A stretch of 16,953 nucleotides of DNA from a virus (taxonomy: Duplodnaviria; Heunggongvirae; Uroviricota; Caudoviricetes): the IMG/VR virus record IMGVR_UViG_2529293063_000008, one strand, 5' to 3'. The position numbers were made by a program, and so were the translations under genes. Of the stretch, positions 1,606 through 16,761 are shown one piece after another. The notes below the pieces were generated by a model. It worked only from the letters and a program-made list of their open reading frames with translations. It had not been told where the DNA came from and did no database searches. Positions within the stretch are counted from its first letter, which is position 1. Every line of letters starts with the position of its first letter.

Positions 1606-1625
1606 TGTGCGACCGTGGTCGCACA
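1606..1625. repeat. Centromere-like palindrome, copy 1 (TGTGCGACC-GT-GGTCGCACA)
   Basis: Core TGCGACCGTGGTCGCA has 7-bp arms and a 2-bp centre; the same core recurs at 5900-5919 and 8345-8360. Same architecture as my recollection of the F sopC SopB site TGGGACC-AC-GGTCCCA. Confidence 0.5.
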
Positions 1626-2257: not shown

Positions 2258-2569
2258 ATGTTTAACGTGATAACCCACCCTGCAGCACTGGATGAACTGC
2301 TTGAACTACCAGATGATTTGCGAGGTCGCATGACCAGATTAATTGAGCGACTGGAGAAAGAAGGCAACAAACTGAAGATGCCCCATAGCCGTGTAATAGG
2401 TGGAGGGCTTTTTGAACTACGAGTAGGGGATAAAAACATCGCAAGAACGCTGTACGCCTACGCGACTGGTAACGAAATTTATCTATTGCATGCATTTGTA
2501 AAAAAGACACAGAAAACACCGGTGAAGGCTATCGAAATCGCCAGAACTCGCCTGAAGGAGATGAACTGA
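2258..2569 (+). CDS. Type II toxin, RelE/HigB-fold, gp49-like family
   Basis: 103 aa, SD GGAGG 7 nt upstream. Sequence ...GGGLFELRVGDKNIARTLYAYATGNEIYLLHAFVKKTQKTP... matches my memory of HigB/gp49-type toxins. Toxin-first order with a 1-nt overlap (TGATG) to a downstream HTH gene. Confidence 0.8.
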   Translation: MFNVITHPAALDELLELPDDLRGRMTRLIERLEKEGNKLKMPHSRVIGGGLFELRVGDKNIARTLYAYATGNEIYLLHAFVKKTQKTPVKAIEIARTRLKEMN

Positions 2570-2856
2570 TGAAAGCGAAAGGCATCCCGTTTAACGAAGT
2601 AAAAGAAAAACTTCTCAACACTCCAGAAGCCATCAAAGGATATGAAGAGGCCGATAAAGAGCTGGAGATGGTCGAAATGTTATACGAAATGAGGGAAAGA
2701 GCAGGTTTAACGAAGTCAGCTCTGGCTGAACGAATGGGATTGCGCCCGTCAGCTATCAGCCGCCTGGAAAGCAATCCTTTAGGGGCAAGCATGAAAACTT
2801 TATCAAAATATGCCCAAGCATGCGGTGCAACGATTAATATTAATGCCGTCTATTGA
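2569..2856 (+). CDS. HTH (XRE-family) antitoxin, HigA-like partner of the gp49-like toxin
   Basis: 95 aa; HTH segment LTKSALAERMGLRPSAISRLE; SD AAGGAG 9 nt upstream; start overlaps the toxin stop. Confidence 0.8.
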   Translation: MKAKGIPFNEVKEKLLNTPEAIKGYEEADKELEMVEMLYEMRERAGLTKSALAERMGLRPSAISRLESNPLGASMKTLSKYAQACGATININAVY

Positions 2857-2873
2857 TTAGACCCTTTTCGCTA

Positions 2874-2895
2874 CCCCGTCCGGAAGGGCGGGGTG
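2874..2895. terminator. Hairpin between convergent genes (possible bidirectional terminator)
   Basis: CCCCGTCC-GGAA-GGGCGGGG stem-loop between the antitoxin stop (2856) and the stop of the minus-strand 72-aa gene (2900); flanking T-runs are weak. Confidence 0.4.
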
Positions 2896-2899
2896 TGTA

Positions 2900-3118
2900 T
2901 CAATGATGTAAACTCTCAACAGCAATAACTTGTTGGCAATTCTGAGCTATCTCCCGCGACATACTAACAAGTCGTGAAATCTCGCCAAGATGCAAGCTGG
3001 CTTCTGGAGAAGCCAGAGCAACGCTAACCAGATCCAAAACGGCGTCGATGTCTTTTAGGTTTGATCCGAGTTCTTCAAGAGTTGATACAGGTGCTTCAGT
3101 CATTGAATCTAATACCAT
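2900..3118 (-). CDS. Hypothetical 72-aa protein, candidate SOS-regulated gene
   Basis: ATG at 3116-3118; promoter region 3119-3187 contains a LexA-box match and an operator-like 17-mer. Protein MVLDSMTEAPVSTLEELGSNLKDIDAVLDLV... is acidic and has no motif I recognise. Confidence 0.5.
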   Translation of the reverse strand: MVLDSMTEAPVSTLEELGSNLKDIDAVLDLVSVALASPEASLHLGEISRLVSMSREIAQNCQQVIAVESLHH

Positions 3119-3142
3119 TTAATTAAAAAAGGTTATTTGATA

Positions 3143-3158
3143 CTGTATAAAATTACAG
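3143..3158. promoter_or_regulatory. LexA (SOS) box CTGT-N8-ACAG
   Basis: TACTGTATAAAATTACAGGG (3141-3160) matches the E. coli SOS-box consensus TACTGTATATATATACAGTA in both CTGT/ACAG arms and the AT-rich centre; 25 nt upstream of the 72-aa gene start. Confidence 0.6.
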
Positions 3159-3168
3159 GGTAAAACTC

Positions 3169-3185
3169 AAATTTTATAGCCAGCT
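3169..3185. promoter_or_regulatory. Distal copy of the repressor-operator-like 17-mer AAATTTTATAGCCAGCT
   Basis: Exact 17-nt identity with 7098-7114 in the cro/repressor intergenic region. Confidence 0.5.
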
Positions 3186-3187
3186 TT

Positions 3188-3342
3188 CAATGGATTAACT
3201 GGTTAAATATCTTTGTAGTCCGATACTTATGTTCCCTTCCTGCGCCTCGCCCAACCACTTCCAAAAGCCCATCACCACCATCAGAAAAGCTCTTTTCGCT
3301 CCGTTTTCGTATCATTTCAAAAAGCAATGCCTTTTTGTCCAT
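3188..3342 (-). CDS. Small hypothetical protein (51 aa), below the ORF-track size cutoff
   Basis: ATG at 3340-3342 with SD GGAGGGG 4-5 nt upstream; translation MDKKALLFEMIRKRSEKSFSDGGDGLLEVVGRGAGREHKYRTTKIFNQLIH; stop at 3188-3190. Confidence 0.3.
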
Positions 3343-3352
3343 TTACCCCTCC

Positions 3353-3364
3353 GTGACCAGTCAC
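3353..3364. repeat. Palindrome GTGACCAGTCAC (GTGACYRGTCAC family, copy 1)
   Basis: The same 12-mer occurs at 8592-8603 and as its reverse complement within CCCCGTGACTGGTCACGGGG at 13196-13215. Confidence 0.4.
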
Positions 3365-3687
3365 ACTTTGAGCGCAAGTTTCAGCCTCGTGGTTGTAAGG
3401 TGGCATGAGCCTTCACCATCAAAAATGCATTCTGAAACAGGCATTCTTTGACCACATCGCGGACAAGTAGTAGATAGCTGTTTCTGCAACTCCTTATAGT
3501 TTTTCCTGATCAGCAGTCCGATGACTTCGTTCTCTGAATATGGAACTCGCCCTGGTCTACGCAATACACAAATTTCCCCCAACATACGTAACTCGTCAGG
3601 TTCCAGAATCCAGTCCCGTCTTGATGTGCCTTCCTTCTTCAACCGTTCCCTGCGTCTCCTTTGCCGTTCTGCAGCTGTCAGCGCCAT
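3361..3687 (-). CDS. Small basic protein with C-terminal zinc-ribbon-like CxxC motif (108 aa)
   Basis: ATG at 3687 with SD AGGAGG; N-terminus AERQRRRRERLKKEG is highly basic; C-terminus has CPRCG...C.H. Confidence 0.55.
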   Translation of the reverse strand: MALTAAERQRRRRERLKKEGTSRRDWILEPDELRMLGEICVLRRPGRVPYSENEVIGLLIRKNYKELQKQLSTTCPRCGQRMPVSECIFDGEGSCHLTTTRLKLALKV

Positions 3688-5874: not shown

Positions 5875-6177
5875 TTAAATGGCGTTATTTTCATTTTCTT
5901 GTGCGACCGTGGTCGCACCCTCTCTAATTTCCAGATAACGCTTAATCCAAAGATTTTCTATATGCTTATTACCTGGCTGATTTGATAAATACCAATCGGC
6001 AATTACAGACTGCTTATTACTATCGGGTCGTGTCCTGTAACCGCAAGTTGGACACCAGATGACATATTCATTTCTTACCCCCGAATACCTTAATTCTGGC
6101 TTCGACGGTTTCCTGAACATAACTTGTTTACAAAGGCAGAATGGCACTTCCTGCCCGATGGCGTTTGATGATTTCAC
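5875..6177 (-). CDS. Zinc-finger protein, possibly Lar-family restriction-alleviation protein
   Basis: Two Cys pairs (PFCLC ... CPTCGYRTRP) about 27 aa apart, followed by ADWYLSN, in the pattern I recall for Lar-like proteins. Start set at GTG 6177 (SD GGAG) so that both Cys pairs are included; overlaps the upstream gene by about 50 nt. Confidence 0.4.
   Translation of the reverse strand: MKSSNAIGQEVPFCLCKQVMFRKPSKPELRYSGVRNEYVIWCPTCGYRTRPDSNKQSVIADWYLSNQPGNKHIENLWIKRYLEIREGATTVAQENENNAI
5900..5919. repeat. Centromere-like palindrome, copy 2
   Basis: TGTGCGACCGTGGTCGCACC; core identical to 1606-1625 and 8345-8360. Lies inside coding sequence at the junction of two small genes. Confidence 0.5.
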
Positions 6178-6838
6178 TGCGCTTCTCCGCCGCATTTAAT
6201 AATGCGGTTCGATTTAAGCTCAGACATCGCGACTTAATTAAAAGCCAGCGTTCTTTATAATCTTGTCTCCAGCTATCAATAGATATATTCAGTAGAAAAC
6301 TCAGATGCCTGTCCTGTTCTCTCTCATCAACTGCCTCAGCACACGTAAGTTCTGATTTAACCTGCTGTGCCGCGTAATAAATCAATTTCCGCATGGCTTT
6401 TTTCGTGGAGGCCTTCATTTTTTTAAAGCCGCCCCCCGAATGAGCAACCAGAAAATCAAGCCATAACCACTGACAAACAATCACATCATTGTTGTAGTCA
6501 GGCTTGCATCCGTAGCAATAATAAAGCCAGGCTGATTCCTCGTTATTCAACTGACAAATAGCCCTGCGCCAGCTGGCGCTCTGAAAATCAATATCAGTGA
6601 GCAACATTGATGATTGTTTAAATGTTTTCCCCTGGTGGAATCTAACCGGCTCAGCGGGAACGGACACTTCGTATGAGTTATCATCCCCCACACTGATTGA
6701 CCGGACTGGTTTATTGTTAAACCGTCCTGATCTACCGAGACGCATCTGCTCAAGCTGGACCTCCAGAATGCCACGCTGGCGATAATGAACATCAGCCAAT
6801 GCCGTAGAGACGCAGCTGCGTATATACTCAAGCTCCAC
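6128..6838 (-). CDS. Hypothetical regulatory protein immediately downstream of cro (position of a cII- or Q-like early regulator)
   Basis: 236 aa; GTG start at 6838 overlapping the cro-like stop by 11 nt (ATG 6745 is an alternative); Cys-rich segment WLYYCYGCKPDYNNDVIVCQW. Function not assignable by eye. Confidence 0.5.
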   Translation of the reverse strand: MELEYIRSCVSTALADVHYRQRGILEVQLEQMRLGRSGRFNNKPVRSISVGDDNSYEVSVPAEPVRFHQGKTFKQSSMLLTDIDFQSASWRRAICQLNNEESAWLYYCYGCKPDYNNDVIVCQWLWLDFLVAHSGGGFKKMKASTKKAMRKLIYYAAQQVKSELTCAEAVDEREQDRHLSFLLNISIDSWRQDYKERWLLIKSRCLSLNRTALLNAAEKRSEIIKRHRAGSAILPL

Positions 6839-7049
6839 GCTTACGACTCTCCTTAATCGACTGCTTTACCCGCCGAGTTGTAAAGTCACTCTTCAGCTTG
6901 TAAGCAGTACGAACTTCAATATCGCTTTGCCGCAATGAAGGAATCTCTCCAGCGGTTAACCATTGGTAAACAGCTCCGGGTGTTACACCTACCCCTGCCG
7001 CTGCTTTTTCAACACTGCCAAAGTGGCGAATAAGTTCTTCTGGTTTCAT
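6828..7049 (-). CDS. Cro-like HTH regulator
   Basis: Start moved to ATG 7049 (MKPEELIRHFGSVEKAAAGVGVTPGAVYQWL...); HTH motif; divergent from the repressor gene across an operator-containing intergenic region. Confidence 0.65.
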   Translation of the reverse strand: MKPEELIRHFGSVEKAAAGVGVTPGAVYQWLTAGEIPSLRQSDIEVRTAYKLKSDFTTRRVKQSIKESRKRGA

Positions 7050-7080
7050 GTTGTTATTATAAACAATAAACAATAATTAA

Positions 7081-7134
7081 AGCCAGCTATAATAAATAAA
7101 TTTTATAGCCAGCTATAAGAAGATCATTTATGAT
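7081..7134. promoter_or_regulatory. Immunity-switch operator/promoter region with two operator copies
   Basis: AGCCAGCTATAA at 7081-7092 and 7109-7120; the second sits in TATAGC-CA-GCTATA with perfect 6-bp arms (7103-7116). TATGAT (7129-7134) lies 6 nt before the repressor ATG, suggesting a leaderless repressor mRNA. Confidence 0.5.
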
Positions 7135-7140
7135 TACAGT

Positions 7141-7737
7141 ATGAAAACACGAGGCGAACGACTGAAAGCACGCCGTTTAGAGATGAAGCTGACGTTGCGA
7201 GAAGTTGCTGAGGCTGTCGATATCTCTATAGCAGGCGTCCAAAACTTAGAACGTGGCGACGTAATGCCGTCACTGGAGATAGGTATTGCCCTGGCTAAGT
7301 GCTTACGCAAGCCAGTACATTGGGTGCTATATGGGACAGAATATGACCCTGATCGCATTCCTGTTATTGGCACAACTGAAAGTGGGCCTGATGAAGAGTG
7401 GAAGCCGGGACAGGTTCCAAATACTGAGCGATTCCTGCCATTCATCAGCCAGCGCAATACTGTGTATGCGTTAACTATCAGCAATCTTACGCAGGGAAAC
7501 TATCAGCCAGGCGATTTTCTCCTGGTCGATTCTGCGCTGGAACTGGTCCCCGGCGAGGATGTTCTGGTTCGTGATACTGCAGGAAATATCACTATCCAGC
7601 GCCTAGCCCGTTTTGATGATGAAAATTACTATCTGGATGGAACAAACTCACAACGCGCTATCTTCAGGAAAAGCGATCTTGAATTTGTTCACCAAATAGT
7701 CGGAACGATCAAATCATTCATGGTTGAGGGTAGATGA
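7141..7737 (+). CDS. CI-like prophage repressor (N-terminal HTH, C-terminal S24-like domain that appears to lack the catalytic lysine)
   Basis: 198 aa; HTH LTLREVAEAVDISIAGVQNLERG; C-terminal GDFLLVDS...GEDVLVR...ITIQRLAR resembles LexA/CI (GDLLAV...VTVKRL) but has Q where the catalytic K is expected. No Ala-Gly in the linker. Confidence 0.8.
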   Translation: MKTRGERLKARRLEMKLTLREVAEAVDISIAGVQNLERGDVMPSLEIGIALAKCLRKPVHWVLYGTEYDPDRIPVIGTTESGPDEEWKPGQVPNTERFLPFISQRNTVYALTISNLTQGNYQPGDFLLVDSALELVPGEDVLVRDTAGNITIQRLARFDDENYYLDGTNSQRAIFRKSDLEFVHQIVGTIKSFMVEGR

Positions 7738-7839
7738 CTTAATACGGGGTTTATTGTTTGCTGTAAATCTGGTTTAATGCAGGGCATATGTTCTGTGGGT
7801 TGACTCAGGTTACAGCAGCAGAAAAAAGACGAAAAAAAA

Positions 7840-7982: not shown

Positions 7983-10900
7983 ATGACATTAAACGATTTC
8001 TATGCGGATCGCTTTGGCAGCGATCCGTTCTCGCTAATTGAAGCAGCACGGGATGAACTAACCGAGCTGGCACAGATGGCTGGTATCAACTGGCCTGCCT
8101 GTTCCGACAACATCCAACTCAACCCTCGCGGGGGTGTTGAGCGTTACTCTTCATACAATAAAACATCTCCAGAAGCTCTCGAGAAGAGCCTCAAAGGACG
8201 CGTAGAAATTTACTCCCGGCTGGAACACAGCAAAGGGATTGATTACCCGTTCATTAACTTCGTCCATAAAGGCAGCGATGCTGGCTCATGGAGCGGTTTC
8301 TCCTTCCTGTTTTCTGAATATCGCCGTGAGCAACAACGGAATAATGCGACCGTGGTCGCACAACCGGAAGAAGAACGGGCAAGAATAGAACGTCAGGCCG
8401 AAGCACGTCGTCGCCGTGAAGAACAAAAACGAATTAATGACCTGAAAAACAACCAAATTGACCATGAACGTTTGCTGGGATGGCTGGCATTTCACAGCGC
8501 GTGGGAACATGCTCCTGCAGAAGACGGCTCATGGCCATATGCGATTAAAAAAGGTATTCGTGACGTTTTTAATTCGTGTGATGTGCGTCGCGTGACCAGT
8601 CACGACAGCGCAAAATGGAGCAGGGGGCCAACCACGTATATGGCTATCCCTCTGGCTCACCTGGACGGTCGTTACGATGGTCGTATTGTGGGTTGGCAGC
8701 GAATCGACAAACAAGGTGGAAAATACCAGACCAGCGCAGTAACCAGCGGCGATTTCGTCGGTGCCTGCTTTGTTATCGGTGAGCTGAAAGGGGCGCAAAA
8801 CATCGCTGTTACAGAAGGTTTTGCTACTGGTGCATCCATCTGGCTTGCCACGAAAAAAGATAAACGCTTTGACGCTGTGGTTGTCGCTGTATCCGCTAAC
8901 AACATGGTTCATGTTGTGGAACAACTGGTAAACATGTACCCGGCGGCAAAAATCACCTGCGCACTGGATAATGACCGGAAATCTGCCACAGAAGGAAAAG
9001 GGAATACCGGCCTGCGGACTGGCTATGAAATCTTATCGAAATTCAACGATGTCCGCTGCGTCTATCCAACTTTTGAAGACGATCCGCAAATGGAGTGCAG
9101 TGACTTCAACGACCTGCACAAACTACGTGGACTTCGTGAAACAGCACGTCAACTATTTGCAACAGCAAACCGCCTGAAAACTGGTACTGATTTGCTATCT
9201 CTGACGCTCAACCGCCTGAAGACAATTAAGCGGGATAACCGTCGTACTTTTGCCAAAGAGCTGCTGAGAGCGGTGGATATTGGCATGCTAACCTGTCCGG
9301 TTCCTAACAGTCCGTCAGATTTATTTAACATGTTCTGCATCGTTCTGCGTGAAATGGGACTGGAAAATATCTATCGCGCTACGGTAAAAGACCACATTGC
9401 CCGTCGCCTGAATAAAAAGTGCCGTATTGCCCAGGCTCCGCGCTCTTTCAGCGAACGCATAACTGATCCCAATAAACGCCCTCAACATATCACATATAAG
9501 CGTTTTGAAACTTCGGTAATGACCGATGATGTCCTGAAGTACGTGCAATCACTACAGGGGATAGTCATCGTCCGTGCTGGTATGGGTTCCGGCAAATCTA
9601 CTGGATTGTTACGACCGTTAATGCATAGCTCAGAACGTGGTATCTCTGTTGCTCACCGTGTCTCCCTTATTGGCGGCCTGTGGGAAATGATGACAGAAGG
9701 AAAAGGTGTAAAAGCCGATATCCTGCACTATCAGGATCCTGGCTATCAGGAAATAGCTCCATACGCCAGTAAACTGACCATCTGCATAAACTCGATTGTT
9801 AAAAACTGCTGGCAACCGTTGATGCGCCAGCACGACTATTTTGGCTTTGACGAGGCCACACAAGGGCTACGTGCCGTTCTTTCCGGTCGGGCTATGGAAA
9901 ACCCGGTGGCTGTATTCAATACGCTAATTGACGCGCTGGCCAGAACAGAACAACACCCAATCATGGTGGATGCTGATGCGAATGATCTGCTGGTTGACCT
10001 GGCTGAACTGGCTATGAAACGCCGTGAAGAACTAGGTTTACCGGCATGGCTGCAGATCCACGTAATTGAATTACCTGTTGATGTTCGCAACCGCGAAACA
10101 GGTGAGCCAATCCGGGTTTTTTATACAGAAAAAGATCGCATCATGACCGAGGTGGTGAAAGCTGTATCGGATGGCGAAAAAATCATGTTGGCCACCGACA
10201 GCTCCACCTTTGCAGAAGATGTGACAGCCACCCTGAGAATGCATTTTCCTGGTAAGAAATTTCTGTGTGTAAACCAGAAAAACAAACCAGAGCCAGAAGT
10301 TGAAGCATTTACCAATCAACCGAAAAAGATGGTCAAAAAATACGACGGCCTGATTTATAGCCCGTCTATTTCATCCGGCGTGTCGATTGAGCAAAAACAT
10401 TTTGACCGTCATTTCGGCATGTTCTGTGGTGAAGTTGTACCCAGCGACGCAGTGCAAATGCTACGCCGCGACCGTACAGCAAAAGAATTTATTATCGGCT
10501 TTGATAAAGCTCGTGCAAAACGTGAAACTGACCCGCAAAAAATAGAACGAGCATTCGCCCAGGCATTGCTTGCTACCGCAGGTATGAACGGTGAACTGAC
10601 GGATGTCGTTTTCGATGGCGACCGTATATCAATGGGGGTGGCCAATACCGACTTTACCAGGATGAAAATTAAAGCAGCCGCTATTGAAGCGACTGCGCGT
10701 AACGACTACGCCAGCAACATGATCTGCATCATGCACAGCGACGGTTATAAGGTATCGCCGCTGGCCACCGATTATGCTGCGAATGATATCGGTAAAGAGC
10801 TGCGTAAAGAAGCGCGGGATATTGTGTGGGAACAGACACTGGATCTGCATCTCAATACAGAAACTCCACAAGAATCAGAGCGTGAAGAACTGCTAAAAAA

Positions 10901-11978
10901 ACGCGCGCTGACGCTTGAAGAACAGGCAAAACTTGTCCGCTGGGATATTGAAAACGAACTGAAACTACCGGTTGAAGAAGGCACGCTGAAATTCTATTTC
11001 GATGGTGCTCGAGACAAAGTTCGCCGCTATGAAACAATGCTTTTAGATGAGGTAACAGCTCGTCGTTACGACCGGGAAGAAGCAGCCATCAATTTTACCT
11101 ACGCATACCGTCAGGCGGGACAGTGGCAATATTTTGTAGTGACCGCGATGACTCGCGAGCAGGCTGATGATGTCTTTAAAACTAAATTCCCTGGAATAAT
11201 CGATCACAAGGTAAAAGCTACTCCTACTGTTGAAGTCGGGGCGCGCGGTTTCTATGCGCTTAAATCAGCAACTCTCCGGCAGTACTTTATCGACTGCGGT
11301 ATCAACCCTGAGACTATGACCGGCGAGGCGACTCAGGAGCGTCTCAAATTTGCTCGAGATAACCTCATGACAGCCGAACGCCGTGACCTGTTGAATAACG
11401 TTCTGCACATTGGTGGTTTTATGACGCCAAAAGGGAAGCCTAAAGTGCCGGAAGCGTTGTTTAAAAACATTTGCGACTCTCTTGGCCTTAAAACAGGTAA
11501 ACGTCGCGGCAGAGACGGCGATAAGCGTCCAACCTTGCGTTTTGTTGAGCCTGAATCAGCGGCATTTATGCTGGATATTCTTGCTCAGCGTCAGAAAGAT
11601 GGCCTAACCCTGAAAACGCGTAAAGCCGAGAAGACCGCCATCGAAATGGATCGCGATTTGGATCTCAATATATATATGGATGATAAAACGCGATCCACAA
11701 ACGAGCAGGTTCAAAACGCCCCTCATTCAGTAATTTCTGAGGCTTTGGCTGTGTTGCCAGTGGTTGTACCTGAGTCCTGGGCGATGAGTGCGCTTTCCGG
11801 TGAGGAGCTGGCCACTATGTCATCATGGTCATCAGCCAGCATAGCTATGACGTTTGCATCTCTGTACCTCACAGAGTTCATGGATCACTTATCCAGCAAT
11901 GAACTGCGGCGGTTACGTGAATACATTACCGGGAATAGCCCATGCAGCTACGAAGAGCAGGGCGCTTTCTATGGGTAA
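7983..11978 (+). CDS. repA: Multidomain replication protein: primase (TOPRIM) fused to a P-loop helicase/NTPase, N15 RepA-like
   Basis: 1331 aa; TOPRIM-like IAVTEGFATGASIWLA ... ITCALDND; Walker A VRAGMGSGKST; size matches my memory of N15 RepA. Confidence 0.85.
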   Translation: MTLNDFYADRFGSDPFSLIEAARDELTELAQMAGINWPACSDNIQLNPRGGVERYSSYNKTSPEALEKSLKGRVEIYSRLEHSKGIDYPFINFVHKGSDAGSWSGFSFLFSEYRREQQRNNATVVAQPEEERARIERQAEARRRREEQKRINDLKNNQIDHERLLGWLAFHSAWEHAPAEDGSWPYAIKKGIRDVFNSCDVRRVTSHDSAKWSRGPTTYMAIPLAHLDGRYDGRIVGWQRIDKQGGKYQTSAVTSGDFVGACFVIGELKGAQNIAVTEGFATGASIWLATKKDKRFDAVVVAVSANNMVHVVEQLVNMYPAAKITCALDNDRKSATEGKGNTGLRTGYEILSKFNDVRCVYPTFEDDPQMECSDFNDLHKLRGLRETARQLFATANRLKTGTDLLSLTLNRLKTIKRDNRRTFAKELLRAVDIGMLTCPVPNSPSDLFNMFCIVLREMGLENIYRATVKDHIARRLNKKCRIAQAPRSFSERITDPNKRPQHITYKRFETSVMTDDVLKYVQSLQGIVIVRAGMGSGKSTGLLRPLMHSSERGISVAHRVSLIGGLWEMMTEGKGVKADILHYQDPGYQEIAPYASKLTICINSIVKNCWQPLMRQHDYFGFDEATQGLRAVLSGRAMENPVAVFNTLIDALARTEQHPIMVDADANDLLVDLAELAMKRREELGLPAWLQIHVIELPVDVRNRETGEPIRVFYTEKDRIMTEVVKAVSDGEKIMLATDSSTFAEDVTATLRMHFPGKKFLCVNQKNKPEPEVEAFTNQPKKMVKKYDGLIYSPSISSGVSIEQKHFDRHFGMFCGEVVPSDAVQMLRRDRTAKEFIIGFDKARAKRETDPQKIERAFAQALLATAGMNGELTDVVFDGDRISMGVANTDFTRMKIKAAAIEATARNDYASNMICIMHSDGYKVSPLATDYAANDIGKELRKEARDIVWEQTLDLHLNTETPQESEREELLKKRALTLEEQAKLVRWDIENELKLPVEEGTLKFYFDGARDKVRRYETMLLDEVTARRYDREEAAINFTYAYRQAGQWQYFVVTAMTREQADDVFKTKFPGIIDHKVKATPTVEVGARGFYALKSATLRQYFIDCGINPETMTGEATQERLKFARDNLMTAERRDLLNNVLHIGGFMTPKGKPKVPEALFKNICDSLGLKTGKRRGRDGDKRPTLRFVEPESAAFMLDILAQRQKDGLTLKTRKAEKTAIEMDRDLDLNIYMDDKTRSTNEQVQNAPHSVISEALAVLPVVVPESWAMSALSGEELATMSSWSSASIAMTFASLYLTEFMDHLSSNELRRLREYITGNSPCSYEEQGAFYG
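8345..8360. repeat. Centromere-like palindrome, copy 3 (inside repA coding sequence)
   Basis: TGCGACCGTGGTCGCA exact; encodes ...NATVVAQ... within repA. Confidence 0.5.
8592..8603. repeat. Palindrome GTGACCAGTCAC (copy 2, inside repA)
   Basis: Flanked as CGTGACCAGTCACG; same family as 3353-3364 and 13196-13215. Confidence 0.35.
11648..11696. other. Candidate internal replication origin within the 3' part of repA
   Basis: 8-bp inverted repeat GGATCGCG / CGCGATCC (11648-11655, 11689-11696) flanks the AT-rich TCAATATATATATGGATGATAAAA and includes three GATC sites. I recall the N15 ori mapping inside the 3' part of repA. Confidence 0.3.
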
Positions 11979-13195: not shown

Positions 13196-13215
13196 CCCCG
13201 TGACTGGTCACGGGG
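13196..13215. repeat. Perfect hairpin-forming palindrome CCCCGTGA-CTGG-TCACGGGG (GTGACYRGTCAC family, copy 3)
   Basis: 8-bp GC-rich arms with a 4-nt loop; lies 20 bp upstream of a candidate promoter for the antisense-RNA/antirepressor operon. Confidence 0.45.
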
Positions 13216-13265: not shown

Positions 13266-13378
13266 TACTTCGCTGCGGTAAATCCCGTAGCCGGGACTCT
13301 CAACCCCGAAATCCGAACGACGCACAACACGCGCCAGCGTGTTTTTTTGTGTGTATGAGCCTGCGCATATCCGAATTA

Positions 13379-13460
13379 TGGTGGCTCAGGTGGGGCAGCC
13401 GAAAGGCTGGCCGGTGTCGTTTGGGCCGGTGTTGAGAACCCCGCTTGGGCTACCACCCCA
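13379..13460 (+). ncRNA. Candidate c4-type antisense RNA (P1 c4 / N15 CA RNA analogue); boundaries approximate
   Basis: About 80-nt GC-rich segment closed by GGTGG (13380-13384) / CCACC (13453-13457) with internal hairpins. Loop GGTGTTGAGAACCCC (13428-13442) is complementary to ACTCTCAACCCC (13296-13307) and ATTCTCAACTC (13466-13476), which flank it upstream of the icd-like start. Confidence 0.4.
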
Positions 13461-13514
13461 TAGAGATTCTCAACTCTGGTGGTAGCACTGTTTTACCAAA
13501 CAAGAGTGCATACC

Positions 13515-13679
13515 ATGTTCAAATTCAAATTTGCGGCAGTCGTTCGCACAGACAAAAAGTCACACATCCATCATCTTTCCACCATCGCGTCATCTGAACG
13601 GGAAGCTCGTCGCCAGTTCGCCAGCCGGTTTGTCCTGGTATTGTCTGCCCGTATTCCGGTGCGCGAGGTGGCTGCATGA
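13515..13679 (+). CDS. Icd-like small protein (first gene of the antirepressor operon)
   Basis: ATG 13515 (MFKFKFAAVVRTDKKSHIHHLSTIASSEREARRQFASRFVLVLSARIPVREVAA); the longest ORF begins at GTG 13479. Stop overlaps the next start (ATGA). Resemblance to Icd-like proteins is from memory. Confidence 0.5.
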   Translation: MFKFKFAAVVRTDKKSHIHHLSTIASSEREARRQFASRFVLVLSARIPVREVAA

Positions 13680-13909
13680 ATCAGGTAAAAATGAACACTG
13701 TTGGCCTGCTGGAATCGTTGGATGAACGTCTGGCTCAGGTCTATGCGCTTGTGTCATCCGCCCATCGTACAGTCTCCAGCTGTGAGGCGTCGATTTATCT
13801 CTCAGAAGCCGGGAAGCTCCTTCAAATTGCGTGTGAGTTGACACACAAAGCACAGGGGTATTCAGCATCTCTCTCGTCGCAATTGCAGCACAATAAGGAG
13901 GCCAAATGA
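13676..13909 (+). CDS. Hypothetical protein (77 aa), translationally coupled middle gene of the antirepressor operon
   Basis: SD GAGGTGG 6 nt upstream; ATGA overlaps at both ends. Confidence 0.55.
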   Translation: MNQVKMNTVGLLESLDERLAQVYALVSSAHRTVSSCEASIYLSEAGKLLQIACELTHKAQGYSASLSSQLQHNKEAK

Positions 13910-14688
13910 GCGCGTTAGCTGTATTTTCGTTTCAGGAAGAGCATCAGGTTCGTGTAGTGATGATTAACGGCGATCCGTGGTTTGTAGCGGCTGATGTTTG
14001 TAATGCCATCGGGATTATCAATCATCGTGATGCTGTTGGTAAGTTGGATGAAGACGAAAAGGGGGTCGGTTCAACAGACACCCTTGGAGGTAAACAGGGA
14101 GTGACAATTATTAACGAATCCGGCCTCTATACCCTAATCCTCCGCTGCCGTGACGCGGTGAAGCAAGGCACAACAGCTTGGCGGTTTCGCAAATGGGTAA
14201 CGAACGAAGTCTTGCCCTCTATTCGCAAAAATGGAGAGTACGTTTACGTCGAGCCAGAGCCAATGCGAGCAGCAGAGCCGTTGAACTGGAGGCAGAAAGA
14301 GTATCTGCGAGGGCTGATTAACGATATTGCACAAAGTTTTCAATACCGAAATGCCTGGATTAGCGGTGTATGGTTGGCTTTGCGTCGGGCGTGTCGTAAT
14401 CCATCCCCGAACCCCATAACTGTTGATGATTTGCCAGCAATTACGGCAGAACTGCGCCGGATTTTGACGGCTGCTGAGTCGGCATTGGGGAACATGCGCA
14501 CGTATGAACGAGAGTTGTTGCGTGATGTTGTTCGTGGTGGTAGGCGGAGTATGTCGTGTGGTGATTTGCCCATCACCGATATCAACTCTGATCTGGAAAA
14601 GGCGTTACCCGCGCATTTTGAACTGGCAGTTCAAAAACTTGAGCAGTTATCCGCGCAGCTAAAGCCAGCAGAAATCACCAATAAATAG
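13906..14688 (+). CDS. Phage antirepressor with N-terminal Bro-N/AntA-type domain
   Basis: 260 aa; SD AAGGAGG; N-terminal FSFQEEHQVRVVMINGDPWFVAADVCNAIGIINHRDAVGKLDEDEKG...IINESGLYTLILRCR...KWVTNEVLPSIRKNGEY matches the antirepressor signature as I remember it. Confidence 0.8.
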   Translation: MSALAVFSFQEEHQVRVVMINGDPWFVAADVCNAIGIINHRDAVGKLDEDEKGVGSTDTLGGKQGVTIINESGLYTLILRCRDAVKQGTTAWRFRKWVTNEVLPSIRKNGEYVYVEPEPMRAAEPLNWRQKEYLRGLINDIAQSFQYRNAWISGVWLALRRACRNPSPNPITVDDLPAITAELRRILTAAESALGNMRTYERELLRDVVRGGRRSMSCGDLPITDINSDLEKALPAHFELAVQKLEQLSAQLKPAEITNK

Positions 14689-14823
14689 GGTTGACCAGCC
14701 CGAATTTATGCCCTTCTTAGAGAAGGGAAGCCTCGCAGTCGGGGCGGTGATGTCTGTGGTTGCAGCCGCGTTTCCTCCGTTACTTCTGCCCTTTGCAGGG
14801 GGCAGGCGAGGTAGGTCACACAA

Positions 14824-14859: not shown

Positions 14860-16761
14860 TTAACCGAAATATGTCAGCCATGCTAACTGCATTGCTGACA
14901 TGGGGCTGTTTGCACTGCCGGACCACGCATAATTCTGGCCATTATAATGAAACTCAACAACGTATGAGCCATCACCAATATTTCTCACCGGCTTAAATAC
15001 CGGCTTAGATACAGGCGAAGAAGGTGCAGGCGGTTGCTGTTCTTCTACGCTCTCTTCCTCTTCCTCTTCCTCTTCCTCTATCTCAATTTCGTCGTCATCC
15101 AGATCGTCATCCTCTGACAATTCATCCGCCAGTTCAGGTATTGCTTCCAGTTCTTCTTCGTCAGGCATAACGATTTCTGGAGTATCTATTTTCAGTTGCC
15201 ATTGTCCGTTTTCGCCAACAAATTGCCCCAGAGCATCAGCAGCAAATTCCAGGTATCGACTAATCATTGTTGGGCTAAATTTGAACGCTCTTAGAGTGCT
15301 GTTCGTGATTTTTATAGAGGGGTCCTGCTCTACCAGCTGCTTAACTGTGTTATGCAGACGAACCCCGGCATCTCCTCTGGCGAATCCAGGCATTTCGTCA
15401 TCAAGCTGCTGCAATGCTTCCAGCCTGGTATTTTCGTTTCCAGTATTTGGCCTCCATGTCTTTGAGAAGTTGGCCAGCTTGAATTGCTTATAGTGTAATT
15501 GAGTGTTTTCATCGTCATGGCCTAAAATTTCCATAAAGAAAACATCTTCATCTACGTTTTTCCAACGAGGATCTACGCGGAAAAACATTTCATACGCAAT
15601 ACGGGCATAAATAGCACGACTATCTTTATAAACACGGCGGTCATCTTTGAAAAATGATTTAACCCACGGGTTAAAAGCCTTTGCTAATATGGCATTAATA
15701 CGTCCGTTTTCAGAGCGTGTGTCGTTATCTCCATAACCTTTAACGACATCATCAAAATCAGATGCTGCTGGGCATGAGCGAAGTACATTTATTAAATAAA
15801 CAAATGTTTTTGCTTCGCATAATGTATATATTTTTCTGGTTATATCATCAGAAGTTCTTTTTTTAGCTTGGCCTAAAAAATCAACGGTATACTTACCAGA
15901 AACAGTAAATGTACCTTGATACATAATCTCAATCATTCGTCTTCCTGACAATGCAGCAAGTGCAAATGCCAAAGGAGCCATACCTGAACGAGTGTTTAGA
16001 TTATTTAATGTAGCAGGGCTATTTATAATATCGTAAATAGCTTGCATATATTTAGGGTAATCAATGACCACCACGTTACGTTTCTTATTGTGCAGAACGT
16101 CCGCCCATCGTTGCTGGATAGATGCACGTTCGGCAGGGCTTAGTTGAAGATGATAGAGAATCTCATGGTTAACTTTTAGCTGATTCAACTCCTCAAGTAA
16201 GGCAGATCCTTGCTGTAGTAATTTATATAAATAATCGCGCTTATCTTTCCAGTTATCGCTAGTTAAATCAGAAATGGCGAATTGCCACTCTTTATATTTA
16301 TTTGATAATTTCAATAACTTATTATGACTTTTGTTATCGCCAATTCTGATATTAGATAAATCTTCTGATAGAGGGAGAATTAATTTTAATTTTGCCTGTA
16401 AAGCTGACATTCTCTGGCGAATATCGGCAGCAGGTAGAGAAAGCCATGACAATAGCTCCTCATTATATAAAGGATACTTTTCAGATAGGCGATGTATATT
16501 TTTTTCAAAGCTATGATGAAGTTTATCATCAAACCGTTTTCTGGCCCTGCTCATATAGGCATTGAATGTGTTGGCTGTAATTCTTTTTTCTAATCCTTTC
16601 CCCCTAAACTTTCGCTTGTCATTAAATAATGCATTTTTAAATTTTAATGCAACAGCCTTTATTTTTTTTGTTTTCTCCCCTTGAGGACGGTCAGAGTTAT
16701 CTATTGACTCAACATCGCTAACAAGTGAGTTTATTAATTCACCGATTTTTACTTTGCTCAT
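14860..16761 (-). CDS. telN: Protelomerase (telomere resolvase), TelN-like
   Basis: 633 aa; N-terminus MSKVKIGELIN..., length and an acidic Glu/Asp-rich stretch before the C-terminus match my memory of N15 TelN. SD AGGAGAGG. The gene abuts the terminal half-palindrome. Confidence 0.8.
   Translation of the reverse strand: MSKVKIGELINSLVSDVESIDNSDRPQGEKTKKIKAVALKFKNALFNDKRKFRGKGLEKRITANTFNAYMSRARKRFDDKLHHSFEKNIHRLSEKYPLYNEELLSWLSLPAADIRQRMSALQAKLKLILPLSEDLSNIRIGDNKSHNKLLKLSNKYKEWQFAISDLTSDNWKDKRDYLYKLLQQGSALLEELNQLKVNHEILYHLQLSPAERASIQQRWADVLHNKKRNVVVIDYPKYMQAIYDIINSPATLNNLNTRSGMAPLAFALAALSGRRMIEIMYQGTFTVSGKYTVDFLGQAKKRTSDDITRKIYTLCEAKTFVYLINVLRSCPAASDFDDVVKGYGDNDTRSENGRINAILAKAFNPWVKSFFKDDRRVYKDSRAIYARIAYEMFFRVDPRWKNVDEDVFFMEILGHDDENTQLHYKQFKLANFSKTWRPNTGNENTRLEALQQLDDEMPGFARGDAGVRLHNTVKQLVEQDPSIKITNSTLRAFKFSPTMISRYLEFAADALGQFVGENGQWQLKIDTPEIVMPDEEELEAIPELADELSEDDDLDDDEIEIEEEEEEEEESVEEQQPPAPSSPVSKPVFKPVRNIGDGSYVVEFHYNGQNYAWSGSANSPMSAMQLAWLTYFG

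Follow-up and report, generated by a model that had tools for sequence, protein, structure and literature searches.

What controls the small minus-strand gene that lies beyond the 3119-3187 region of this element, and what does its product do? A sequence-only reading of the window, by which we mean the whole 16,953-nucleotide stretch of phage DNA analyzed here, had placed the gene under dual control by host LexA and the prophage repressor and had proposed that it encodes an SOS-controlled small antirepressor that takes the place of repressor self-cleavage. Our analysis indicates that 3119-3187 is very probably the LexA-repressed antC promoter region of an N15-type prophage, forming a damage-induction switch that operates through the action of AntC on the CB repressor. 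Within the window, this answer has its basis in homology, gene order, a conserved box and promoter, a noncatalytic repressor and the layout of the operators.

The gene order of the window, which matches that of phage N15 (genes 37 to 52), identifies it as a linear plasmid prophage of the N15 type (Ravinvirus) (Table 1). The antC region is ~90% identical to two Ravinvirus phages, and positions 2860-3400 are 100% identical to the Escherichia coli plasmid prophage NZ_LR883007.1. The early operon begins with cro and ends with antC, which lies, as in N15, downstream of genes 46/47 and convergent with the toxin-antitoxin genes 48/49. The intergenic gap upstream of the antC homologue spans 3119-3186. 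Read on the minus strand from 3190 to 3100, the region consists of the TGA stop codon of the upstream gene (3189-3187), which falls within the operator-like 16-mer listed in Table 1, followed by ...GAAAGCTGGCTATAAAATTTGAGTTTTACCCTGTAATTTTATACAGTATCAAATAACCTTTTTTAATTAAATGGTATTAGATTCAATG. A promoter and terminator scan of 2800-3420 recognized no terminator between the early operon and antC.

The same scan missed a GC-rich hairpin at 2873-2894, where antC and the antitoxin gene converge. Its stem forms, and its folding relative to shuffled sequences was not significant (z = -1.1). N15 carries a stronger hairpin at the equivalent position.

Table 1. Features of the window and their coordinates
Feature	Coordinates	Strand	Description
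Methylase			Counterpart of N15 gene 52; followed by homologues of genes 51 and 50
RelE-like toxin and HTH antitoxin	2258-2856	+	N15 genes 49/48; Pfam Gp49/HTH_3
GC-rich hairpin	2873-2894		Possible bidirectional terminator lacking a T-run, between convergent antC and antitoxin genes
antC homologue (small ORF)	2900-3103	-	67 aa, acidic helical-hairpin protein, presumed antirepressor of CB; between toxin-antitoxin genes 48/49 and homologues of genes 47 and 46
Putative -10 of P_antC, TACAGT	3142-3147	-	Inside the LexA box; invariant in 65 loci
LexA (SOS) box, TACTGTATAAAATTACAGGG	3141-3160		About -25 to -6, over the spacer and -10 of P_antC
Putative -35 of P_antC, TTGAGT	3165-3170	-	TTGNNN-17-TACAGT geometry
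17-mer, AAATTTTATAGCCAGCT	3169-3185		Identical to 7098-7114
Operator-like 16-mer, TTATAGCCAGCTTTCA	3174-3189		About -54 to -39 of P_antC, upstream of the -35
Remaining early genes			After the homologues of genes 47 and 46
Q	6128-6838
cro	6828-7049	-	Pfam P22_Cro, 2.4e-22; RefSeq annotation of near-identical plasmid
OR1 equivalent, TTATTATAAACAATAA	7054-7069		14.6 bits, TA-N10-TA; 23 bp from OR2, as in N15
OR2 equivalent, TTAAAGCCAGCTATAA	7077-7092		26 bp from OR3, as in N15
OR3, TTATAGCCAGCTATAA	7103-7118		16-bp CB/Cro operator beside cB; identical to N15/phiKO2 OR3
cB prophage repressor	7141-7737	+	HTH and degenerate S24-like domain; presumed AntC target
OL1 equivalent	7751-7766		Between cB and repA
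OL2 equivalent	7774-7789		Between cB and repA; 23-bp spacing from OL1
RepA	7983-11978		1331 aa
immA antirepressor module	13270-14690
immA small protein gene	13676-13909		77 aa; N15 gp31 homologue

The SOS box had been placed at 3141-3160, and these coordinates proved exact: the box contains the sole CTGT-N8-ACAG in the window (3143-3158). The bare pattern alone is weak evidence; 0.25 occurrences are expected per window by chance, and 46 of 200 shuffled windows carried at least one. The full 20-mer is much stronger evidence. Scored with a LexA position weight matrix (PWM), a check that the sequence-only reading had suggested, it reached 20.0 bits, like genuine E. coli SOS boxes, and the runner-up site in the window reached 11.2 bits. 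The matrix was built from 21 E. coli SOS boxes, which themselves score between 13.1 and 26.8 bits (median, 21.4). The top site among the 200 shuffled windows scored 19.4 bits, below the box.

We then aligned the control region across 65 loci (13 annotated relatives and 52 IMG/VR loci) from Escherichia, Enterobacter, Klebsiella and Citrobacter elements. The sequence CTGT-N8-ACAGTA lies 38 to 42 nt before the conserved ATG in 13/13 relatives and 52/52 IMG/VR loci, the phiKO2 variant reading ATGT, and in every one of the 65 a TTGNNN hexamer is found exactly 17 nt 5' of TACAGT. The -35 variants across lineages are TTGAGT, TTGCGG, TTGCCA and TTGCGA. This geometry points to a sigma-70 promoter, P_antC, whose transcripts would start near 3135, and the resulting placement of the SOS box is a normal position for LexA repression. 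The generic scan of 2800-3420 called no promoter, because the two hexamers match the consensus at only 8 of 12 positions, and the assignment of P_antC therefore rests on phylogenetic footprinting. Between the window and locus L007, a member of the sister E. coli clade, antC has diverged by 0.67 synonymous changes per site, and there are 0 changes in the 32 nt that run from the -35 to just past the -10, SOS box included. Set against that divergence, the unchanged 32 nt constitute strong footprint evidence in this comparison.

These data bear on the view that CTGT-N8-ACAG arose by chance in an AT-rich intergenic region and that the ORF is expressed simply as the last gene of the cro-Q operon. 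The chance frequency of the bare pattern and the failure of the scan to call a consensus promoter would both fit that view. However, the full 20-mer outscores the best site of all 200 shuffles, and its position and sequence are kept across the 65 loci (allowing for the ATGT of phiKO2) while flanks and synonymous sites have diverged heavily. We regard a chance origin of the box as extremely improbable. Control of antC by LexA is, on the sequence comparisons, well supported, and it is already known for N15.

The gene behind this promoter had been described as a 72-aa acidic gene at 2900-3118. The gene is real, acidic (pI 4.4 to 4.5) and coding, with dN/dS values of 0.10 to 0.34 against five relatives, but its start needed correction. 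The 72-aa product would arise from an upstream ATG at 3118, which is absent from phiKO2 and the Klebsiella group; RefSeq and phiKO2 annotations use the second ATG, at 3103, and translation probably starts there, yielding 67 aa. Neither ATG is preceded in the window by an evident ribosome-binding site. A tblastn search with the small ORF matched 13 phage records, including N15 and phiKO2 Gp47. The N15 match (57% identity over 94% of the protein, E value of 9e-18) lies at 39604-39807, an unannotated stretch between gene 47 and the toxin-antitoxin genes 48/49. Across 6 lineages, the family has 28 invariant columns, and the invariant core common to the N15 and window proteins reads DxDAVLDxVS...SPEASLH...RL..MSR. 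An AF2 model of the protein is a two-helix hairpin (pLDDT of 91.9) with the invariant S-P-E-A-S motif at the turn. Searched with Foldseek against the PDB, it found no match at an E value of ≤10, as expected since the model is a bare two-helix hairpin. Pfam and NCBIfam hold no family for the protein, and in the database records examined all family members are called hypothetical or uncharacterized proteins, none of them named. PHROG profiles did recognize it, as phrog_6301 (3e-36) and as phrog_10889, annotated "anti-repressor" (1.4e-6).

The N15 genome contains only two strong boxes by the LexA PWM. One (21658-21677, 24.7 bits) immediately precedes the umuD-like gene 26, and the second (39562-39581, 21.3 bits) immediately precedes the homologue of the small ORF. 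Published work on N15 credits the onset of induction to antC, whose product is a LexA-controlled antirepressor directed against CB (Mardanov and Ravin, 2007, J Bacteriol 189:6333), and likens AntC in this respect to Tum of phage 186. The literature that we found on antC gives no N15 coordinates for the gene, and by elimination and family membership we infer that the N15 ORF at 39604-39807 is antC. The proposal of an SOS-controlled small antirepressor that substitutes for repressor self-cleavage is supported: it is the published N15 AntC mechanism, and the ORF is the N15 homologue.

The window also carries an immA antirepressor module, whose small protein is 59% identical to N15 gp31. The gene for this protein follows a C4-type antisense RNA, recognized by Rfam, and an Icd-like gene, recognized by NCBIfam. 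Ravin et al. (1999) reportedly describe the N15 anti-immunity module immA as comprising the cA/C4-type RNA, icd, antA and antB, and its small antirepressor, like AntC, reportedly acts against CB. Because NCBIfam places Icd one gene upstream, the gp31 homologue occupies what we take to be the antA position in the published order icd-antA-antB. Like the antC product, the immA small protein matches phrog_6301 and the "anti-repressor" family phrog_10889, and a MAFFT alignment of the two proteins revealed a common motif, S[PC]EAS[LI][HY]L. Pairwise BLASTP between them did not detect the paralogy; it is seen by the PHROG profiles and MAFFT only. Since the same two PHROG families are matched, AntC and the RNA-controlled immA small protein are, by profile and alignment, distant paralogues. 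This paralogy suggests one antirepressor fold wired to two different inputs.

The presence of immA as a second antirepressor module is one of the points that would favor a different role for the small protein: it might be SOS induced yet serve another function in the damage response, such as modulating cell division or a host function, while prophage induction proceeds through RNA-controlled immA. The lack of a matching Pfam or NCBIfam family or solved structure, together with the uniform "hypothetical protein" naming in the databases, leaves room for such a role. Against it, the literature cited above assigns N15 induction to LexA-controlled antC acting on CB, and the other strong LexA box of N15 precedes the umuD homologue. 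The profile evidence also argues for an antirepressor, since the protein matches phrog_10889 and shares phrog_6301 with the immA small protein and not with Icd. We consider a non-antirepressor role very unlikely.

The sequence-only reading had noted that the repressor appears to lack the catalytic lysine. That observation was correct. In an alignment with LexA, K156 corresponds to Gln in all CBs, and S119 corresponds to Thr in the window and Ile in N15. The window CB is 78% identical to the product of N15 gene 38 and matches Pfam HTH_3, with a partial, subthreshold match to Peptidase_S24. It has neither the catalytic Ser/Lys pair nor an Ala-Gly site and is predicted not to be self-cleaving. 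Published work likewise describes the N15 and phiKO2 CB proteins as lacking the active-site Ser/Lys and found the N15 repressor experimentally to be nonproteolytic and to remain uncleaved under SOS conditions.

The operators on which CB acts could be placed by comparison with N15, in which exactly five 16-mers, each of the form N-TA-N10-TA-N, are marked out by two protein_bind features. The window has five equivalent operators at the N15 spacings, all with TA-N10-TA, and the position and spacing of OL1 and OL2 correspond to those of N15 protein_bind feature 34056-34094. TA-N10-TA is common to all known CB operators, including OR1 to OR3 and OL1 and OL2 of N15/phiKO2 (Lobocka, 1996; Hammerl, 2016). 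From the five annotated N15 operators (12.9 to 21.5 bits), and from these only, we trained a CB-operator PWM.

The remaining claim concerned the 17-mer upstream of the SOS box, described as identical to an operator at 7098-7114. The identity is exact, but 7098-7114 is not itself the operator. Because the real operator is the 16-mer OR3 at 7103-7118, the 17-mer combines 12 of the 16 OR3 bases with 5 nt of flanking sequence, and an exact repeat of at least 17 nt occurred somewhere in the window in 28 of 200 order-2 Markov simulations. In the proper register, the sequence of interest is the operator-like 16-mer at 3174-3189, and the question becomes whether control of antC is truly dual in this sublineage, with CB also binding this site where it abuts the -35 of P_antC. 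Such binding would help keep antC off in lysogens or form a DNA loop to OR, ~3.9 kb away.

Several properties of the 16-mer favor dual control. It matches OR3 at 14 of 16 positions, and its promoter-proximal half is perfect. One of the two mismatches, the T at position 13, is also present in the bona fide OR2 of N15 and in OR2 of the window. Sites with two or fewer mismatches to OR3 arose in only 5 of 300 shuffled windows. By the CB PWM, the 16-mer scores 15.4 bits, which makes it the third-best site in the window and puts it within the range of the annotated N15 operators, above N15 OR1 (14.6 bits) and the weaker OL site (12.9 bits). In addition, published work reports that CB binds degenerate operators with low specificity and forms tetramers and possibly octamers.

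Other properties argue against it. The second mismatch changes the invariant second TA to TC, so that the site reads TA-N10-TC and breaks the pattern of all known CB operators, and OR3 half-sites alone are reported in published work to be unbound by CB. The PWM score reaches only about the 95th percentile of shuffle maxima (15.5 bits). The site is solitary, whereas genuine CB operators form a 23/26-bp phased array, and it lies outside the core promoter.

Its distribution is narrower still. The operator-like register scores 14.0 to 15.4 bits in the clade of the window only, and nowhere else does it exceed 8 bits: the sister E. coli clade (L007, L009 and L001) scores 2.5 bits, N15 scores -3.2 bits, and all other variants score 7.6 bits or less. 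Accordingly, neither N15 nor phiKO2 has the site, and it is also missing from the sister E. coli clade and from the relatives in Enterobacter and Klebsiella, although the relatives compared share an identical OR3. L007 and L009 lack it even though their CB (WP_001495876.1) and Cro (WP_001386907.1) carry the same accession numbers as those of L004, a locus that has the site. Of the 20 loci in the clade, 17 carry TGAAAGTTGGCTATAA, a 13/16 match to OR3, and the exact 17-mer is present in the other 3, namely, the window, L004 and a near-identical contig from a metagenome (99.86% identity). Because the outgroup carries T, the C at 3181 is derived, and this T-to-C change improves the match to OR3, a point in favor of dual control. 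Between clades, the 17-mer stretch has diverged at 6 of 17 positions, close to the synonymous rate, and there is therefore no sign of constraint on it.

We also considered two evolutionary scenarios for the site and rejected both. An ancestral, family-wide CB operator at -54 to -39 was suggested by the recurrence of a GGCTGTAT-like half-site, but scores outside the clade do not rise above 7.6 bits. Nor did a cluster of substitutions that created the operator stand up as evidence, since divergence is close to the synonymous rate all the way from the gene 47 homologue, at its 3' end, to the -35.

By these sequence criteria, the resemblance of the operator-like 16-mer to OR3 is imperfect, of recent origin and confined to one clade, and the 16-mer is most likely no required part of the switch. 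We think it unlikely that CB binds the predicted site at 3174-3189 in the lineage of the window, and true dual control of antC is, in our judgment, equally doubtful. Of the two regulators originally proposed, LexA is well supported, with its box kept in 65/65 loci, and the prophage repressor is not supported, given the broken TA-N10-TA and the restriction of the site to one clade. The more specific idea that CB has recently gained a working site abutting the -35 of P_antC, the promoter that drives its own antirepressor, with the site sharpened by the T-to-C change at 3181, strikes us as distinctly improbable. If it were true, the induction threshold would be tuned by a repressor-antirepressor feedback loop or by a 3.9-kb loop joining OR to P_antC, a regulatory connection caught while evolving; binding of CB to the operator-like site would show on a small scale how a few point mutations can create a regulatory link.

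The LexA-controlled antC switch that we favor would work as follows. In an undamaged lysogen, host LexA bound at 3141-3160 would keep antC silent, because the LexA box spans both the spacer and -10 of the sigma-70 promoter. DNA damage would activate RecA, LexA would cleave itself, and P_antC would fire. The 67-aa AntC would then bind the CB repressor, which is presumably unable to cleave itself because Gln replaces the catalytic Lys. Removal of CB by AntC from OR1 to OR3 and from OL1 and OL2 would derepress the cro-Q early operon and repA, leading to lytic growth. Since the early operon ends with antC and no terminator precedes that gene, read-through from the derepressed cro promoter could reinforce AntC synthesis, and such read-through may amount to an indirect control of antC by CB that does without the distal operator. 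For LexA binding, damage inducibility and the AntC-CB interaction in the window element, we infer the same behavior by analogy from the N15 literature.

The sequence-only reading, made from raw sequence, had in this way correctly reconstructed a known circuit, that of a noncleavable repressor paired with a LexA-controlled small antirepressor. The new elements are modest: an unannotated family, the paralogy with the immA small protein, and a near-operator beside the promoter in one E. coli sublineage. The antC gene is unannotated in the N15 reference genome, and the family is "hypothetical protein" in all of the records examined; annotation of antC across the many N15-like phage-plasmids of Enterobacteriaceae could draw on the conserved box, promoter and ORF signature.

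Among known systems, the closest is antC of N15 itself, also a Ravinvirus. The two share the position of the gene between gene 47 and the RelE/HTH pair, 57% protein identity, an SOS box equally far from the start codon and within a TTGNNN-17-TACAGT promoter, a noncleavable CB (78% identity) and an identical OR3. They differ in the C-terminal tail of the antC product, in an internal deletion in the gene 47 homologue of the window, and in the sequence upstream of the -35, where N15 has nothing operator-like (-3.2 versus 15.4 bits). Compared with the N15/phiKO2 CB operators, the distal site is similar in its 14/16 match to OR3 and in a PWM score within the range of the five N15 operators; unlike them, it lies upstream of the -35 instead of over the promoter core, and it is not conserved at equal immunity type. 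The immA module differs from antC in its input, being controlled by a processed antisense RNA (Rfam C4) and not by LexA. On these comparisons, the window module is orthologous to the N15 antC module and belongs to that known system.

The resemblance to more distant phages is one of circuit design. In phage 186, as in the window, the repressor is uncleaved and the antirepressor gene lies outside the immunity region under a LexA-repressed promoter. Tum, which we compared by description, binds the 186 CI repressor reversibly; it is a 146-aa protein with a DinI-like C-terminal half, in contrast to the 67 to 72 aa and lack of a Pfam domain in the window protein, and the phage family and repressor of 186 are unrelated to those of the window. 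The small antirepressors GfoA and GftA of the Salmonella Gifsy prophages, also compared by description, are likewise encoded far from the immunity region under direct LexA control, and they bind a noncleavable repressor (Lemire et al., 2011). The Gifsy layout consists of a terminator-like palindrome, a LexA box, a dinI homologue and the antirepressor gene downstream, whereas 2900-3400 of the window contains no dinI and no terminator. By analogy, then, the arrangement in the window works like those of 186 Tum and Gifsy GfoA/GftA, yet it is not a member of those families.

We found that the window carries a complete second antirepressor module of the immA type on the plus strand, at 13272-14688; its components are listed in the table below, together with the dispersed elements described here. 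Because the product of antC, the presumed LexA-controlled antirepressor gene, and the 77-aa immA protein both match phrog_6301 and phrog_10889, the two proteins are distant paralogues.

Features of the immA module and dispersed elements in the window
Feature	Coordinates	Strand	Source or context
isrK match	13272-13347	+	Rfam
C4 antisense RNA	13374-13460	+	
Icd-like ORF	13479-13679	+	NCBIfam NF033153
N15 gp31 homologue, 77 aa	13676-13909	+	
Ant protein with Bro-N, 260 aa	13906-14688	+	
CGTGACCAGTCACG-core palindrome	3351-3366		directly upstream of the gene-47 homologue
CGTGACCAGTCACG-core palindrome	8591-8604		within repA
CGTGACCAGTCACG-core palindrome	13199-13214		flanked by the CB-operator-like site and the immA promoter
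CB-operator-like site GTAAAGCAAACTATAA	13170-13185		directly upstream of the immA promoter region
TGTGCGACCGTGGTCGCACA palindrome	1606-1625		between the methylase and the gene-51 homologue
TGTGCGACCGTGGTCGCACA palindrome	5900-5918		
TGTGCGACCGTGGTCGCACA palindrome	8345-8362		
Gene-47 homologue, 51 aa	3187-3342	-	
Putative protelomerase ORF, 633 aa	14860-16761	-	

The site GTAAAGCAAACTATAA, which is kept in both the window and N15 (L013 28576-28591), retains the TA-N10-TA pattern of the operators of the prophage repressor, CB, and scored 15.0 bits with the N15 CB-operator matrix, a value that is borderline against shuffled sequences. It may be a CB site governing the immA antirepressor module. 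The neighboring palindrome belongs to a family of three copies sharing the core CGTGACCAGTCACG, and the N15 counterpart of this copy is conserved as GTGACTGGTCAC.

A different palindrome, TGTGCGACCGTGGTCGCACA, is likewise present as three scattered copies in the window. At the position in phiKO2 matching the copy at 1606 lies the near-identical GTGCGACCACGGTCGCAC, annotated as a "putative plasmid partitioning site," and the three copies are probably dispersed centromere sites of the N15 type.

In YDC107_1, as in the sister clade of related E. coli loci, the gene-47 homologue upstream of antC encodes a protein of 80 aa. The window's version has 51 aa, the middle of the protein having been lost through an internal in-frame deletion. 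Judged by its position, the 633-aa ORF is presumably the protelomerase gene; a tandem of about three CTCTTC/CTTCCT hexamer copies lies within it, at 15052-15071.

Across the antC region, the window and the E. coli plasmid NZ_LR883007.1 share 100% identity. The plasmid's OR2 differs (TTAAAGCTAGCTATAA at L004 10233-10248 versus TTAAAGCCAGCTATAA at window 7077-7092) and overall identity is 98.5%, which indicates, from sequence comparison, that close relatives have undergone mosaic exchange. On each of several IMG/VR contigs, the antC locus occurs twice, in inverted orientation (L015/L016, L040/L041, L051/L060, L052/L055, and L054/L059), the pattern expected if a linear plasmid prophage with hairpin ends were assembled as a head-to-head palindrome.

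In N15 itself, the top-scoring SOS box, TACTGTATAAAAAAACAGTT (L013 21658-21677; 24.7 bits), lies 15 nt upstream of the umuD-like gene 26, in a region beyond the extent of the window. N15 thus has two predicted LexA-controlled genes.
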